Positions 3,121-30,239 of a DNA stretch of 30,239 nt are shown piece by piece. The notes below the pieces were generated by a model. The model was not told where the DNA came from. It did not search any database and saw only the letters and a program-made list of their open reading frames with translations. The stretch comes from a virus. Its lineage: Duplodnaviria > Caudoviricetes. Location: IMG/VR virus record IMGVR_UViG_3300044513_000191, positions 1 to 30,239 of that record; one strand, 5' to 3'. The stretch's first letter is position 1, and the number at the start of each line of letters is the position of its first letter. A program made the translations under genes and the position numbers.

Positions 3121-4103
3121 TAGCGTACATTATTTACTTTGTCAAATGCAAAATCAAAGTTTATTGTGTAATCTGTTAGTTTGTCGTTTAAACTTGTTTT
3201 AAATTGTAATGTTTTACTTGTTGGTATTACAGGTAGTGTTTTGTTTTCATATCTAATCCAAACATTTTCACTTAAAAATAATTCTTCAATAGTTTCATTC
3301 ATACTTTCTTTTATAAACCCTGTATTTAAAACTAAATTGGTTTTACCATTTACATTGTATCTTTGTGATTGACCTTCTGCTATTGAATAAGTAGATGAAG
3401 CATTAGTAACTGTATTACGTTTAAAAGTTTCATCTGATACATTAAGACTTTCAATACTCTTTTTAAAGAAGTATAAATCTTGAAAAGCACCATATTTATT
3501 TACAAACGTAATTTTAAAAGGCGTGTACTTTGGTTCACAAATATTAGTTACACTAATTGTTTTTAAAAGTGTAGTATCATCTGTATCATAAACTTGTATT
3601 GTAGAACTATTGGAAGGTATTGTAACGTACTGAATTTTTTGGTTTGTATTACCGTTATCAGTTATTTGTGTATCAACTGCATCAATAGTTACTTTTCCAA
3701 CTCCTTCTGCAAATATTGGTAATTTACCTTCTGTATTTTCAGGAATATAAATATCATTTGAACTTATAAGTACATCTCTATCTAATTCAGGGTTTGTACC
3801 ATCTTCAAAATATCCATAACCATCTGTTGCTATAAATGTAAATATTTGTGGATTAGAATAAGTGTAAGGTTCGTCTGCTTGATTAAAATAATTTACAATA
3901 GCAGTTGCCCATCTAGTATGACTTATATAATCATTATTAAATGTTACATCTAAATAATCACGAACCAACTCGCCAATCTCTAAAGTTATATTATTGTGAG
4001 TTTCTATTCTTGTTTTATTTATACTATAATTTGGTATAGAACTGTAATTGCCTTCTAAACCTTCATAAATAAATAAATCTAATTGTATTCTTTTTAAAGC
4101 CAT
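3120..4103 (-). CDS. Minor tail structural protein (distal-tail-like)
   Basis: 327 aa with ITFVNKYGAFQDLYF...LVLNTGF...EELFLSENVW motifs typical of Flavobacteria siphovirus tail proteins; within the tail operon. Confidence 0.7.
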   Translation of the reverse strand: MALKRIQLDLFIYEGLEGNYSSIPNYSINKTRIETHNNITLEIGELVRDYLDVTFNNDYISHTRWATAIVNYFNQADEPYTYSNPQIFTFIATDGYGYFEDGTNPELDRDVLISSNDIYIPENTEGKLPIFAEGVGKVTIDAVDTQITDNGNTNQKIQYVTIPSNSSTIQVYDTDDTTLLKTISVTNICEPKYTPFKITFVNKYGAFQDLYFFKKSIESLNVSDETFKRNTVTNASSTYSIAEGQSQRYNVNGKTNLVLNTGFIKESMNETIEELFLSENVWIRYENKTLPVIPTSKTLQFKTSLNDKLTDYTINFDFAFDKVNNVR

Positions 4104-4105
4104 AA

Positions 4106-5548
4106 TTATAATATTGCACCTTTTCCATCTCCACCACTTGCGCAGTTTCTTATTTGTACGTCTAAAACTATTCCTGTCGCATCAATTTGTATAAGATAAA
4201 AATCCCCAACTCCTACACCGACAGAATTAGTGTTTGAAGTAGAAACACCATAATAATATCCTTTTCCATTAAAAGGCGTTCCATTTTTACATATTTTAGT
4301 TCCCATTAATCCTGTTATCGTACTTCCTGTTGATTGAACAGTTGAAGTTGTTGTATATGTATTATCACAAAAATTATTTACAGAAGTTTTTGCAGCAGAT
4401 AAATAAAACGTGTTTGCTCCACAATCATCTATTTCAGCGGGTTGAATTAAATCTTTACTACACACTATTGTAGAACCTGCATTAGAATAACCACTAGGAA
4501 CTAATACATCAAAAGAAACTGTTCTTGCAGTATCAACTGAAACAGGAGAAAAAGAAGATGGTGTAAAATCTCCTAAAGTACCTTTACTAGCAACACCAAT
4601 ATAAATACTACCCCTTTCGCTTATAGCTTGTTTTGTAAGTCCTGCTATTTCACAAGTAAACAAAGGGTCTATTCCTACTGATGGTTGGCTAAATGTTTTA
4701 TCACAAGTAATCGTAGCACCTGCATTAGCATATCCACTTGGTACTGTAATGCTAAATGTTAATGTTACATCTCTTGCACTACCTGTATTATTAGCAGTAG
4801 TTGTTGGTGTATATCCTGTAATCGTTCCTGTTGTTTGTGGGTTTGTTACAGTTCCATCAGCTGCTATTGCACCACCTGTTAATGGAGAAGTATTACAATC
4901 GTATGTTGGCGCACCTACTACGTTTATTGTTACACTTATTGATTGAACCGCTGTACAAGTATTTGTACCACTATCATAAGCACTAGCATATAACGTAATA
5001 GAACCACCTATTACATTTGAAGTAATTGTAAGTGTTGAACCACTTATAGCAGTACTAACTAAAACAGGATTTGAATTTGTAATATTATATCCACTTATAG
5101 GATATGCACCTTGAGTAAAGTAATTAGACAAATCAATATCTACACTATTGCCACCACTATTTAAACTTTGTGAAGGAATAGAACCATTTAAAGTAATTTC
5201 AGGTGTACAAGCTGTTGGTGTTGATAGACCTGCTTGTGTAGCACTTGTTCCACATTCAAAATATACATCTTCTGTATTTGTAAATCCTGATGGTATTCTT
5301 ATAGTTACATCTATTGTTCTTACAGTATCACTACTAACTGTTGCAAACTTACCATCTGCAAAATCTCCTGCTGTACTTGTATATGAATGTACAATACCAT
5401 AATCTGCATTAGGCAAAGTAACCACTCCTTGATTATCAACAGAAAACCCAATTAGATTTGCAGTAGTACAATCATAAGTAGGTAATGGAACTGTTGGTTC
5501 TGTTAAGTGTAAATAAAACGGACTTCTAACATTTATTTTTGTACTCAT
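4106..5548 (-). CDS. Structural protein with three Cys-bounded internal repeats and an Ig-like segment
   Basis: 480 aa, Thr/Ser/Gly rich; repeats of P-x-(Y/F)-x-C...PSG(F/Y)xN...C-x5-Q are visible in the translation. Confidence 0.65.
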   Translation of the reverse strand: MSTKINVRSPFYLHLTEPTVPLPTYDCTTANLIGFSVDNQGVVTLPNADYGIVHSYTSTAGDFADGKFATVSSDTVRTIDVTIRIPSGFTNTEDVYFECGTSATQAGLSTPTACTPEITLNGSIPSQSLNSGGNSVDIDLSNYFTQGAYPISGYNITNSNPVLVSTAISGSTLTITSNVIGGSITLYASAYDSGTNTCTAVQSISVTINVVGAPTYDCNTSPLTGGAIAADGTVTNPQTTGTITGYTPTTTANNTGSARDVTLTFSITVPSGYANAGATITCDKTFSQPSVGIDPLFTCEIAGLTKQAISERGSIYIGVASKGTLGDFTPSSFSPVSVDTARTVSFDVLVPSGYSNAGSTIVCSKDLIQPAEIDDCGANTFYLSAAKTSVNNFCDNTYTTTSTVQSTGSTITGLMGTKICKNGTPFNGKGYYYGVSTSNTNSVGVGVGDFYLIQIDATGIVLDVQIRNCASGGDGKGAIL

Positions 5549-9491: not shown

Positions 9492-9523
9492 AATCAAAAA
9501 ATATCATTAATGATTCTACTATA

Positions 9524-9549
9524 ACAATAAGATTTACATTGTTTTGTTA
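9524..9549 (-). promoter_or_regulatory. Late promoter motif copy 2, upstream of the terminase genes
   Basis: Plus strand acaataa-13 nt-ttgtta. Confidence 0.75.
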
Positions 9550-9568
9550 ATAGAAAATTATATTTTCC

Positions 9569-10078
9569 CTAAACTAAATCAAATTCTCCACTTGCAATTC
9601 TCTTTGGTTCGTGCTTTTTTAAACGTGCTTTTAAGAAGTTATACTTGTTTAATAGTGTATCGTATTTTTTAGCTTCTTCTACTAATGCTTCTGCAATTTT
9701 ATTGTTTACTATGTAATTATGTTTTTCTTCTAGTTTCTTGTATTCTATTTCATAATATCCTTCTATTGAAACAGCTTGTGTAAAAAAATCAGGGTTTATT
9801 TTTGCAGCGTGTTCCACTCTTTTGTTTAGGGTCTCATAGTCTTGTCTTAATTGTTCATCATATTCTAACCAATCTTTTATGTTTTTTAATGAATGTAATG
9901 CTGTTGCGTGGTCTCTATTCATTGTCTTACCTATTGCTTCTAAACTCATTCTGCTATTATCCCTTAATAGTTTATAATAGATTGCACGTGCTTCTACATA
10001 CTTTCTTTGTCTTGTTTTTAAATCTATTTTTAATTTATAAAAATCTTCTACTATCTTTTTAATCATTTCGTGGTTCAT
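9569..10078 (-). CDS. DNA-binding protein with a DnaA C-terminal-like HTH domain and a coiled-coil tail
   Basis: R-x-R-x-x-V-x-AR...SLEAIGKTMNRDHATALHS matches the DnaA domain IV signature (RDHTTVLH). Confidence 0.8.
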   Translation of the reverse strand: MNHEMIKKIVEDFYKLKIDLKTRQRKYVEARAIYYKLLRDNSRMSLEAIGKTMNRDHATALHSLKNIKDWLEYDEQLRQDYETLNKRVEHAAKINPDFFTQAVSIEGYYEIEYKKLEEKHNYIVNNKIAEALVEEAKKYDTLLNKYNFLKARLKKHEPKRIASGEFDLV

Positions 10079-10283
10079 TGTCTATTTCGTTTATTGTGTT
10101 AATTATTTCTCTTATTGTCATATATCCTGATTCGTGTATTGCTTTTAATATTCCTGCACACGCTTCAAACTCGTCAACCTCCTCATACATATCAATAGCT
10201 TCTTCAAGTTCTGATATATCTTTACCGTTTGCTATATCTATTAAAGCAAGTAAGTAAAACTCTTCTACTATATCTTTATTCAT
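10059..10283 (-). CDS. Hypothetical acidic protein with a UVR-like helical motif
   Basis: 74 aa; AIDMYEEVDEFEACAGI resembles the E(D/E)(F/Y)E-x-(A/C)A-x-I motif. Confidence 0.6.
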   Translation of the reverse strand: MNKDIVEEFYLLALIDIANGKDISELEEAIDMYEEVDEFEACAGILKAIHESGYMTIREIINTINEIDNEPRND

Positions 10284-11025
10284 TTTTTACAAATGTGCCA
10301 TTAACCATTTTACCTGTTCTATTTATTATTATGTTATAAGCACTATCGATACAATCTTCTATTTTTAAATTTTCAAGTTCTGCTAGATTAGTTAATACAA
10401 CTACAATATCACCTATAGCATCTATTATTTCTTCTTTATCCTTATTAAGTAATGCTTTTGCTAGCTCGCCCGATTCTTCTTGTAGTTTGATGTATTGTGT
10501 TTTAGAATCTCCTTTATCTAGTATTCCTTTATCTTTCGCCCACTGTCTTATGTTATCAAAGATAGTAGCCGTAGATGTTTTGTAGTAGTGCCACAAAGTT
10601 TCGTTGTATATATACATTGGTAAATTAGGAAATTGACTTTTCTTTAGTTTTTTTTCTATAAAATCTTTTATGTCTTCTGTAACTTCTACTTCTCCAAAGT
10701 CTGGTAAATTAATTGTTTTTAAATAAGAATACTTTTCTTTAAAATCTTTTTTTTCAAATACTTTTTTAAATGTTGTAGTCTCTTGTGTGATATGTAATTC
10801 TTCCATTTTATTTACGTTTAGTTTATTATAAGGTGTTCTATCTCTTTTGTATCCGTATTTGTCTTGCATCTCTATTTCTTTGTTTGATGCATCATTAATA
10901 TCTGTTGTTGTATATAATATTTCATATTCTCTTACCCCTTGCTCTTGTTCTACTCTTTTTTTTAATCTATGAGTACAGCCTATTTTATTTGTTCTAGGTA
11001 TTCTATATATGTAATAAATTTTCAT
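10276..11025 (-). CDS. Fusion protein: N-terminal GIY-YIG-like domain, linker domain, C-terminal MazG-like NTP pyrophosphohydrolase
   Basis: N-terminus YIY-x7-IGCT-x5-R...E; C-terminus QWAKDKGI...KLQEESGEL...EIIDAIGD...RTGKMVNGTFVK (EExxE...ExxD). The MazG call is firmer than the nuclease call. Confidence 0.8.
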   Translation of the reverse strand: MKIYYIYRIPRTNKIGCTHRLKKRVEQEQGVREYEILYTTTDINDASNKEIEMQDKYGYKRDRTPYNKLNVNKMEELHITQETTTFKKVFEKKDFKEKYSYLKTINLPDFGEVEVTEDIKDFIEKKLKKSQFPNLPMYIYNETLWHYYKTSTATIFDNIRQWAKDKGILDKGDSKTQYIKLQEESGELAKALLNKDKEEIIDAIGDIVVVLTNLAELENLKIEDCIDSAYNIIINRTGKMVNGTFVKNE

Positions 11026-11777
11026 ATAGCTAAAGGCGCTTTTATTAATTTATTTGATTTATAATTATGCAAATAATAATCATCATAACTTCCTTTTAAT
11101 TCTGGAAGTTTATAAATTTTATTTTTAATATATAAATTTACTTGTTCAATATGATTCTCGTAAAGGTGTGCATCTGCTAAATTTAATCCTAATTGATGAG
11201 GTACTAAATTACATTGCTTAGATATTTCAATTAAAAACAATGCTCCAAAAATTATATCATACGGCAAACCTAAAAATAAATCTGAACTTCTGAAATGCAT
11301 TGCTAAATTTAACTTATTATTACTTCTTACAAAATTCATTTGAGTATAGCAACAGGGTAAAGATTGCTCTTTTAAATCAGAGGGATTCCACAAAGTAATA
11401 ACAGCTCTTCGCGTATTGTTTTTTATTTCATTAATGCAATATTCAATTTGATTTATAGAATTATTGTATTTTTTAATTTGATGCCCATACACTTTTCCTA
11501 GCTGCCCATTAACAGCAAATTCATTCCACCAGTTAATATTATTATCTTGTAAATATTTCAAATCCGTACGACCTTCATATATCCATTTAAATTCAGCTAA
11601 TGCCTTTTTAAAATATATTTTTTTTCCTGTTATTATAGGGAAACCTTCGTTTAAATTAATATTAATATTTTGATTAAATAATTTTAATGTATTTATTCCC
11701 GTTCTATTTTTAGTGCTTTCACCATATTGTAAAGTGCGTAATAATAATTTTTTATATGTTTGTTCTAAATTATTCAT
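11022..11777 (-). CDS. thyA: Thymidylate synthase-family enzyme with dCMP-type specificity residues (predicted dCMP methylase)
   Basis: RTG, ExxW, YG, RR, catalytic Cys143, RSSD, HLYxNH and C-terminal IKAPLAI are present; Asp174 replaces the canonical Asn and Tyr144 replaces His. Family is secure, substrate is inferred. Confidence 0.9.
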   Translation of the reverse strand: MNNLEQTYKKLLLRTLQYGESTKNRTGINTLKLFNQNININLNEGFPIITGKKIYFKKALAEFKWIYEGRTDLKYLQDNNINWWNEFAVNGQLGKVYGHQIKKYNNSINQIEYCINEIKNNTRRAVITLWNPSDLKEQSLPCCYTQMNFVRSNNKLNLAMHFRSSDLFLGLPYDIIFGALFLIEISKQCNLVPHQLGLNLADAHLYENHIEQVNLYIKNKIYKLPELKGSYDDYYLHNYKSNKLIKAPLAI

Positions 11778-12033
11778 TATTTTTAAAATTATTTAATGCT
11801 GCTATATATCCCACTGCATCTAACAAAGTGTCTTCTTTTAAGTTATAAGACATCCTACTTATTTTTAAAGCAATCATACATTTGTAAAAGTCTTCTGCAG
11901 TAATTTTTTTATTACATAATTCAGTTGCTACTATTGCAGCCTTTTCCATTGAATCTTTAAATGGGCCATACTCTCTTTCTTTTTCTTCAAGCCTAAGATT
12001 AATAATTTTATTAGCTTCTTCTAATATATTCAT
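11770..12033 (-). CDS. Small all-alpha protein, DUF6378-like (nucleotide-modification/NTP-PPase associated)
   Basis: ILEEANKII...REYG...MIALKISR...DTLLDAVGY pattern recognised from memory. Confidence 0.7.
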   Translation of the reverse strand: MNILEEANKIINLRLEEKEREYGPFKDSMEKAAIVATELCNKKITAEDFYKCMIALKISRMSYNLKEDTLLDAVGYIAALNNFKNNE

Positions 12034-12797
12034 AATATTGCTCTCATTACATATTGGTCTAAATCATTGTCTTGTTCAAAGAAGTACTTGTAATTGTCTA
12101 CTGCTTGTATAAATTTCTGTTCGCCTTTTGCTATAAAGTCATCAGTGGTTTCAAATATTCCTATGTCAGTACTTGCTTTGTCTATTACTAGAAAGGTAAA
12201 CTTCTTTTTGTTAAACAGTCTTAGATACATATATGCCTGTAAGTCGTAACCATATTTATCAGCTGACCATTTAAAACTTGATAGTTCAGCGGTAGTTTTA
12301 TAGTCTATTATTGTATCGCCTTGTATGATATCTGCTTTACCCCTAAATGGTAATCCATTTAACATAGCTACTTCAGGTACTTCAAATTCACTATCGGTTA
12401 GTAATTGTAGTGCTGCTTCATTTCTAAATATTGCATCCGTTAGACGCTCTGCTGCACTTCTTTCTTTTGTTAGGAATACTTCCCCATACTGTTCTTTAGC
12501 TTCCTTATATATCTTTGTGTTCTTTGTGGAAGCATCTACAAAGTGTAATTCATCTATTTTGTGTGGTTCTAATACCATCCAATGCGCTAACTTACCCGCT
12601 GCTAATGCAGGACTATCCCCATTAGGGTCTCCATACTTTATTACGTTTCTATAAGTCTTTGGACTTTTGAGTATCATTTTAAGACTTGAACTGCTTAAAG
12701 CGTGTTTGCCTAAATGAAAATAGTAAAAAGTGTCATCGTACATTTGTGCAAGGATTTCTTCCTTACCCCATACTTCTCCATTTAATAGTGTAATCAT
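12030..12797 (-). CDS. PD-(D/E)XK exonuclease, RecE/ExoVIII-like (DUF3799-like)
   Basis: LSSSSLK, GKLAHWMVLEP, E...KAD...IIDYKTT and YGYDLQAYMY motifs. Confidence 0.85.
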   Translation of the reverse strand: MITLLNGEVWGKEEILAQMYDDTFYYFHLGKHALSSSSLKMILKSPKTYRNVIKYGDPNGDSPALAAGKLAHWMVLEPHKIDELHFVDASTKNTKIYKEAKEQYGEVFLTKERSAAERLTDAIFRNEAALQLLTDSEFEVPEVAMLNGLPFRGKADIIQGDTIIDYKTTAELSSFKWSADKYGYDLQAYMYLRLFNKKKFTFLVIDKASTDIGIFETTDDFIAKGEQKFIQAVDNYKYFFEQDNDLDQYVMRAIL

Positions 12798-30016: not shown

Positions 30017-30239
30017 TGTTGATTCTATGTCTCCAAATCCGTTTAATATTCCTAAAACTCCTGATGAGAAAGTTCCTGATATGTTTGTAGCACCTTTAAT
30101 CCAAACTTTTCTGTAATTAAATTCATCTGTACCCCAAGCAATTTCTGCATTTGATACATCTCCTACAATAAATTTACCTGTATTACCATTTGAATCAACG
30201 TGCCTAAATGTATGAGATACTTCATACCAAGTATCTTTT
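30017..30239. repeat. Direct terminal repeat, right copy
   Basis: Matches 1-223 with one mismatch; encodes the last residues of the large tail protein. Confidence 0.97.

Follow-up and report, generated by a model that had tools for sequence, protein, structure and literature searches.

Base substitution at the level of the nucleotide has been described in phages that have their own polymerase and usually also a kinase. One question then is whether, and with which genes, it could be carried by a small phage in which neither is recognised. The question is raised by the record IMGVR_UViG_3300044513_000191 (30,239 nucleotides (nt), analysed over its whole length and termed the window), in which three overlapping minus-strand open reading frames (ORFs) at 10276-12033 encode a DUF6378 protein, a homologue of thymidylate synthase (TS, ThyA) and a protein ending in a MazG domain. 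A sequence-only reading had taken this block for a cytosine-replacement cassette that makes 5-methyldeoxycytidine monophosphate (5-methyl-dCMP). Comparison with relatives of the window (G001 to G003) and with fetched viral loci (L-numbers) shows that the three genes are gained and lost jointly, along gene boundaries, in a slot that otherwise holds DNA-modification genes. We consider it probable, on balance, that this swappable cassette supplies 5-methyl-dCMP, which the host's enzymes would incorporate to give phage DNA that is methylated in part and protected from restriction.

A block gained and lost as a unit

The three ORFs (87, 251 and 249 amino acids (aa); Table 1) overlap by 8 and 4 nt, and their Pfam matches are DUF6378 (E 4e-15), Thymidylat_synt (E 8e-64) and, C-terminally in the third, PRA-PH/MazG (E 2e-6). 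As had been noticed earlier, the block is rich in AT: its GC content, 0.258 against 0.313 for the genome, lies below that of all 500 equal-size sliding windows outside it (minimum 0.265, these windows overlapping one another), and the cassette is the most AT-rich block of the phage genome. A 223-nt terminal repeat indicates that the record is a complete circular genome. No polymerase, deoxynucleoside monophosphate (dNMP) kinase, dihydrofolate reductase (DHFR) or dCMP deaminase was found among 52 window ORFs with Pfam or 45 ORFs with PHROGs, in line with the sequence-only reading, with the reservation that many of these ORFs have no family match and divergent forms of such enzymes could escape the scan; P-loop patterns occur in the helicase and the ERF protein only. 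The host is likely a flavobacterium, because among cultured phages a related portal occurs only in the Nonlabens phages P12024S/L (37%, four of four records), all four terminase matches in prokaryote genomes belong to Bacteroidota, and G003 codes for a type IX secretion tail.

Loci were fetched by four terminases (80 each), so that their choice did not depend on the TS. Among the 53 dereplicated helicase-to-terminase loci, all 12 that bear a TS have both DUF6378 and MazG, whereas the 41 TS-less loci hold no DUF6378 and a single MazG, in L344, which lies at a contig edge where the TS was probably cut off. Gene order is seen in 53 TS loci fetched by query words and not dereplicated (475 homologues among 765 candidates): DUF6378 stands immediately upstream of the TS in 51, and MazG immediately downstream in 52, as a long fusion in 26 and in a short, bare form in 26, the remaining locus stopping within the TS.

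The exchange is visible at nucleotide resolution. By blastn, L056-L058 align with the window (88-97% nt identity) as far as 12027-12030 and resume at 10282-10288, a single unrelated ORF filling the gap; they lack exactly the block, and both junctions, left (~12027-12030) and right (~10282-10288), fall at gene boundaries. Of 19 genes compared with the window, the cassette-less L057 has 15 at 95-100% identity, and the window's own sub-lineage (L001-L010/L068) retains the block across a synonymous difference of 24-30%. The block is a precise, recently swapped module, and the co-occurrence and joint gain and loss that the earlier reading had expected in relatives are borne out.

A ThyA-fold enzyme with the residues of a dCMP methylase

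The central enzyme is 34% identical to Escherichia coli ThyA, of which it keeps R21, E58, W80, Y94, R126, R127, L143, C146, R166, S167, D169, H207 and Y209, the changes being N177D, H147Y, Q165F and Q151N. In E. coli numbering its catalytic Cys143 corresponds to C146, Leu140 to L143, Asp166 to D169, and Asp174 and Tyr144 to the altered positions N177 and H147. Published rules hold that Asp177 selects dCMP, that an acidic residue at 143 accompanies hydroxymethylation and that D169N accompanies hydroxylation (PMC8670742, PMC13326640, bioRxiv 2024.12.05.627091); five of seven Asp177 enzymes assayed with the T4 kinase yielded 5-methyldeoxycytidine (5mdC; bioRxiv 2024.12.05.627091). Since N177D, L143 and D169 fit these rules, the window enzyme is predicted to be a dCMP methylase with 5-methyl-dCMP as its product, which agrees with the dCMP-type residues already noticed in it. 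It combines the ThyA fold and catalytic Cys with Asp177, a non-acidic residue at 143 and Asp169. The Asp or Glu at 143 of T4-type hydroxymethylases is replaced by Leu140 and is present in sister alleles (L061, L103, L130 and others); the D169N of 5-hydroxy-dCMP synthases is not seen (D166); and the Asn177 and His147 of canonical thymidylate synthase give way to Asp174 and Tyr144, the TIGR03284 cut-off being nevertheless passed. Asp stands at 177 in all 52 viral loci covering the position, and no TS homologue covering it in the terminase-selected loci has Asn.

In a 34-row tree the window clade (14 copies plus that of uvMED S28-C10; 100/99) is sister to Asn177 ThyA (97/92) and separate from Xp12/PaMx74, T4 gp42 and the hydroxymethylase types. 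The simplest reading would be that the switch to dCMP arose independently in this clade; the topology is tempered by long branches and by the atypical composition of Xp12. The nearest annotated homologue, 52% identical, belongs to the T7-like phage S28-C10 (L054:9173-11194), where the gene lies amid an NTP pyrophosphatase, a kinase, a dCMP deaminase and a polymerase, an Xp12-type kit, and is annotated as plain thyA; S28-C10 is likely an unrecognised 5-methylcytosine (5mC) phage. The cultured Bacteroides phage BF503P2 (L384) has two Asp177 TS homologues (1109-1915 and 3989-4669), one of them 49% identical to the slot's hydroxymethylase type. One-per-species prokaryote genomes contained no relative of the window TS. 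Two short TS motifs were absent from the eLife supplements, and hence no contig with measured modification can be assigned to this clade.

MazG, domain X and the nuclease-type partner

The third protein had been described as a GIY-YIG-like/MazG fusion, a description that names the two ends, the scores for GIY-YIG being weak, and misses the middle: its model (predicted local distance difference test score, pLDDT, 89) has three domains, namely a GIY-YIG-like domain, an alpha/beta domain termed domain X, and MazG. The first is a predicted GIY-YIG-like nuclease, to judge from its modelled beta-beta-alpha-beta-alpha topology and from Y5, Y7, K14, G16, R24 and E50, invariant in 23 of 23 copies; family scores remain below cut-off (T5orf172 E 0.012; viral GIY-YIG folds E 0.015-0.03). 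The MazG domain has the all-alpha fold and the metal-binding acidic residues of MazG-type pyrophosphatases (E183, E184, E187, D202 and D206, invariant in 26 of 26; against 1vmg, Z 10.4, root-mean-square deviation 2.7, 81 aligned), and its Foldseek matches include DCTPP1 and S-2L MazZ. It is a predicted dCTPase, the fold being common to dCTP, dGTP and phosphoribosyl-ATP enzymes.

Domain X (~75 aa, no family name) accompanies 46 of 49 dereplicated TS cassettes on three nuclease-type partners, each of the 46 having exactly one: the GIY-YIG part with domain X fused to MazG in 23, an extension of ~85 aa on ExoVIII in 15, and a 140-aa ORF without family match, read by eye as PD-(D/E)XK-like, in 8. 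Two of the three cassettes without a partner are cut by contig ends, and none of the partners occurs in 40 TS-less loci. The GIY-YIG part is not the fixed member that had been supposed: the bare-MazG loci (26 of 52) have a different nuclease-type partner in its place. In hhalign, domain X aligned with the C-terminal half of the 140-aa ORF at a probability of 63% (E 7e-5, 63 columns) and with the N-terminal ExoVIII extension at 84% (E 7.6e-6, 62 columns), the best of 64 unrelated alignments reaching 6.9%. This link is seen only with a profile widened by 30 of 32 hits, narrower earlier profiles being non-significant, and in hmmsearch the widened profile also matched four unrelated proteins at E < 0.01, three of them holin-like. 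Fold searches with the fusion model were dominated by MazG; an Atlas search with aa 1-152 returned MazG/T5orf172 clusters, and one with the ExoVIII extension gave no match. The simplest role for domain X would be that of a reader aiming the nuclease at unmodified DNA.

For DUF6378, the model (pLDDT 64, best Z 5.1) gave no usable structural match, and the family is absent from the MetaGPA text and tables that were searched (PMC8670742).

Other occupants of the slot

In the relatives the slot contained 332 ORFs in 100 clusters, one representative being scanned for each of 72 protein groups. These include C5 and N6/N4 methyltransferases, an EcoRI-type methyltransferase, a TET/JBP dioxygenase with TAGT glycosyltransferases, Mom, ATPase-GNAT, ParB-like, HNH and GIY-YIG ORFs. 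The DUF6378-TS-MazG scaffold itself recurs with a shorter TS, which has Asp177 and a gp42-like Asp three residues before the Cys and would be of hydroxymethylase type. This version occurs alone, with an alpha-glucosyltransferase (AGT; L061, L062, L117, L183) or with another glycosyltransferase (the L167 group), and no glycosyltransferase adjoins any methylase-type copy examined. In the L167 group the gene beside the hydroxymethylase-type TS is 341 aa long and glycosyltransferase-like (L167:5216-7307, L179, L182, L185), and in those glycosyltransferase-bearing cassettes that were read the TS is followed by an ORF of 80-86 aa that matches no family. A pyridoxal phosphate (PLP)-dependent (PALP) enzyme directly precedes the hydroxymethylase-type TS and MazG in L130:1-1833 and L377:3846-5700, alleles that are candidates for amino-acid-type hypermodification of 5-hydroxymethylcytosine (hmC). 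Similarly, L098:1549-4114 and L235:3259-5838 place an asparagine-synthase/amidotransferase between MazG and a divergent third type of TS (Asp177, Arg three residues before the Cys) preceded by DUF6378, and are candidates for an unrecognised cytosine modification.

The relative G001, a complete genome with a portal 97% identical to that of the window, carries the glucosyltransferase version of the scaffold. Neither polymerase nor kinase was found in G001, nor DHFR, dCMP deaminase or polymerase in G001-G002, by Pfam and PHROGs. AGT acts on hmC in DNA, as established for T4. Because the polymerase-less G001 has an AGT, modified dCMP must reach the DNA via host enzymes in this phage group, which is the strongest argument against a pure route to thymidine monophosphate (dTMP).

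Two further insertion points lie at 9498-9568 of the window and at ~13770 (relatives L056, L057, L077, L115); the one between a DnaA-HTH gene and terS holds methyltransferases and other ORFs, that at ~13770 small nuclease-like ORFs.

Restriction-site avoidance

Palindromes are strongly avoided across these phages. Observed site counts were compared with synonymous-codon shuffles in 90 dereplicated loci, of which 34 have a TS of methylase type, 13 of hydroxymethylase type, 2 of the third type and 41 none. Positions 1-30016 of the window contain no CATG (40 expected), 3 GATC, no GGWCC and 1 CCWGG, gaps pointing to CATG, GATC, GGWCC and CCWGG as host restriction specificities. According to table S3 of PMC7653180, fully 5mC-substituted Xp12 DNA resists CviAII, FatI and NlaIII (CATG) and is cut by DpnII and MboI (GATC).

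Carriers were paired with their nearest-kin non-carriers, L344 and loci with <3.5 kb of backbone being excluded. C-containing sites other than GATC are commoner in the methylase carrier in 19 of 24 pairs (p 1.6e-4), and GC-only sites in 18 of 24; AT-only control sites are higher in 11 of 24, and GATC shows no shift (13 of 24). Hydroxymethylase carriers have more CATG in 10 of 11 pairs, with one tie. Loci with zero CATG, where at least 8 were expected, number 28 of 40 without TS, 12 of 24 with the methylase and 1 of 11 with the hydroxymethylase. In clade C, CATG stands at 47/73 in carriers against 19/150 in non-carriers, and within the cassette genes themselves at 24/65 for the methylase type against 40/50 for the hydroxymethylase type, related copies not being independent. 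From these counts, hydroxymethylase cassettes look strongly protective and methylase cassettes partly so. The portable anti-restriction module that the sequence-only reading envisaged thus draws support both from the relaxed site avoidance and from the exchange of the slot with modification genes.

Some loci stand apart. L119:6891-8617 encodes a C5 and a second methyltransferase, and L119, unlike its kin, is enriched for CG (CpG ratio 1.55) and GATC (63/49). The TS-less L246, L302, L340 and L346 do not avoid CATG; some have methyltransferases, and L346 showed none.

A mutational signature of 5mC-to-T change was considered and rejected as evidence: in 31 of 34 loci the cassette has a lower synonymous GC than the backbone, but the ratio for DUF6378 plus MazG (0.71) is the same in hydroxymethylase cassettes, and C at fourfold sites is not lower. 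Genome-wide third-position GC (GC3) does not differ between carriers and non-carriers.

A proposed mechanism and its competitors

In the mechanism that we propose, the ThyA-fold enzyme would methylate C5 of dCMP by means of methylene-tetrahydrofolate, a cofactor that host DHFR would regenerate; this step is predicted from the residues. The MazG domain would convert dCTP to dCMP, both feeding the methylase and lowering the competing dCTP. Host enzymes would then phosphorylate 5-methyl-dCMP and incorporate it in place of part of the cytosines, and host dCMP deaminase may drain some of the product to dTMP, keeping substitution partial. The GIY-YIG-like domain, aimed by domain X, might cut unmodified host or competing-phage DNA, much as T4 EndoII cuts unmodified DNA. 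Most speculatively, DUF6378 might serve the monophosphate-to-triphosphate step or pool control, as a phage kinase does elsewhere. A Flavobacterium genome with a related terminase holds a dCMP-deaminase-like ORF (ComEB E 1e-25, under the cut-off); three earlier deaminase matches in host genomes were discarded, as they looked like TadA and guanine deaminase. Literature listings yielded nothing relevant on a host CMP kinase acting on 5-methyl-dCMP.

Several results count against this proposal. CATG is missing from the window and from half of the methylase carriers, although full 5mC would protect it, and in the methylase pairs it is up in 8, down in 7 and tied in 9. In the 12 closest pairs (at least 75% identity) the overall shift is only 7 to 5 (p 0.10); moreover, the sites were picked after a palindrome overview, several site sets went into the tests, and the members of a pair may have different hosts. 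Methylase cassettes showed no 5mC-to-T signature of their own. Identity to the validated enzyme of Xp12 is only 23%, and the carrier phage lacks a kinase; in the absence of its phage kinase, a related TS yielded no more than traces of the modified base in E. coli (PMC13326640). Some of these points favour a particular form of the proposal: cytosine substitution is likely partial or recent, and either would fit the CATG-free window and carriers better than the outright cytosine replacement first proposed. Partial substitution would also agree with trace incorporation by a kinase-less TS and with a drain through the Flavobacterium dCMP-deaminase-like gene.

A wider version of the same proposal is conceivable, though less likely than not: DUF6378, TS, MazG and domain X with its nuclease may form a portable "mark self, cut non-self" chassis that loads several modified cytosines (5mC, hmC, glucosyl-hmC, PLP- or amidotransferase-derived bases) via the host replisome, domain X being a new cytosine-state reader on three nuclease folds and DUF6378 solving the kinase step.

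That 5mC takes the place of every C, as it does in Xp12, with the residual site avoidance reflecting recent swapping only, appears rather unlikely. Such replacement would need MazG and a nuclease partner, both of which are predicted in the cassette; the near-identity to L057 implies that the window gained the block recently, and the clade C counts point the same way. A recent gain explains the window's lack of CATG, but its sub-lineage keeps the block over the synonymous difference given above and still has no backbone CATG. Similarly, the methylase cassette genes, which are always in a carrier, fall short of their hydroxymethylase counterparts in CATG, and there is no kinase.

To a supply of dTMP, through dCTP, dCMP and 5-methyl-dCMP with a host deaminase completing the route and the DNA left unmodified, we give little credence. 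A phage without kinase or polymerase, an AT-rich genome, complete CATG avoidance in the window, the deaminase-like ORF of the Flavobacterium and the formation of thymine from 5mC nucleotides in Xp12 all accord with it. The alternative, which the earlier reading had itself raised, is weakened by the slot: since its other alleles are DNA-modification genes and glucosyltransferase versions of the same scaffold, DNA modification is favoured over dTMP supply. It also sits poorly with the relaxed site avoidance and with the absence of Asn177, the simple way to dTMP, from the terminase-selected loci, and it leaves the nuclease partner of 46 of 49 cassettes unexplained.

Least of all do we expect a different product, be it hydroxymethyl-dCMP or some other C5 adduct, or retained dUMP activity, with the nuclease domains as selfish passengers: the rule for position 143 is not strict, as Xp12 has Asn three residues ahead of its catalytic Cys, two of seven predicted methylases gave no 5mdC (bioRxiv 2024.12.05.627091), the thymidylate-synthase cut-off is passed, and free GIY-YIG and HNH ORFs also enter the slot, but Leu143 and Asp169 are retained, the methylase-type copies examined have no adjoining glycosyltransferase, the clade is separate from the hydroxymethylase types, and domain X is found in none of 40 cassette-less loci.

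Relation to known systems

The preferred reading, a cassette for partial 5mC substitution, has a close parallel in Xp12/PaMx74, which share the ThyA fold with N177D, the stretch RSSD.F.GLPYD and an adjoining PRA-PH/MazG-type pyrophosphatase. At 23% identity and on a separate branch, however, the Xp12 enzyme is not an ortholog, and Xp12/PaMx74 encode DHFR, dCMP deaminase and polymerase, none of which was found in the window phage, which has DUF6378 and a nuclease-type partner instead. With T4 the window would share the logic of a TS-fold C5 enzyme, a dCTPase (gp56) and a GIY-YIG nuclease (EndoII), and its relatives have the gp42-like active site and AGT; T4 differs in that gp42 is 16% identical, with Asp at 143 where the window enzyme has Leu, in its own kinase and polymerase, and in its scattered genes. 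Canonical E. coli ThyA shares most of the active-site residues listed and differs at the four positions named above. The cassette would work like an Xp12/PaMx74 module with the logic of T4, and by orthology and gene content belongs with neither.

The chemistry is known from Xp12 and MetaGPA, and modified viral DNA with an Asp177 TS next to PRA-PH has already been published. In the MetaGPA reports both are enriched in modified-C contigs (PMC8670742; bioRxiv 2024.12.05.627091), with figures of 109 against 303 for TS and 50 against 179 for PRA-PH (PMC8670742); the follow-up there concerns deaminases, carbamoyltransferases and polymerase A, whereas no deaminase was found in the window. The new element is domain X, travelling with cytosine-modifying cassettes on three nuclease-type partners. 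No description of the slot or of domain X was found in the literature listings searched, which covered DUF6378, dCMP hydroxymethylases of marine flavobacterial phages, and TS homologues in connection with host polymerases or hypervariable slots, and which mostly leave subscription journals outside their coverage.

Coordinates

Table 1. Features of the cassette, its flanks and the terminal repeat, in window positions
Feature	Position	Strand	Basis
DUF6378 protein, 87 aa, all-helical, first cassette gene	11770..12033	-	Pfam PF19905 E 3.7e-15
ThyA-fold enzyme, predicted dCMP C5-methylase	11022..11777	-	PF00303 E 8e-64; residue table; tree
Third cassette ORF, 249 aa	10276..11025	-	
GIY-YIG-like domain, aa 1-65, predicted nuclease	10831..11025	-	topology, invariant residues
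Domain X, alpha/beta, aa ~69-152	10570..10821	-	hhalign to two other nuclease-type partners
MazG-type nucleotide pyrophosphatase domain, aa 155-249, predicted dCTPase	10276..10563	-	PRA-PH/MazG
ExoVIII/RecE-like exonuclease, upstream flank, also in cassette-less relatives	12030..12797	-	DUF3799
74-aa ORF, downstream flank	10059..10283	-	blastn match to L056-L058 restarts at 10282-10288
223-nt repeat of positions 1-223	30017..30239	n/a	one mismatch

Implications

Base substitution would here be a 1.75-kb plug-in, freely exchanged with methyltransferases, TET and Mom among phages that rely on the host replisome. If this is true, it is a portable allele in abundant small flavobacterial phages, and the slot amounts to a ready-made inventory of new cytosine chemistries, with domain X as a new modification-sensing module. 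DUF6378 gains from the cassette its first testable context and, should the proposal hold, three genes might suffice for 5mC-rich DNA in cells.

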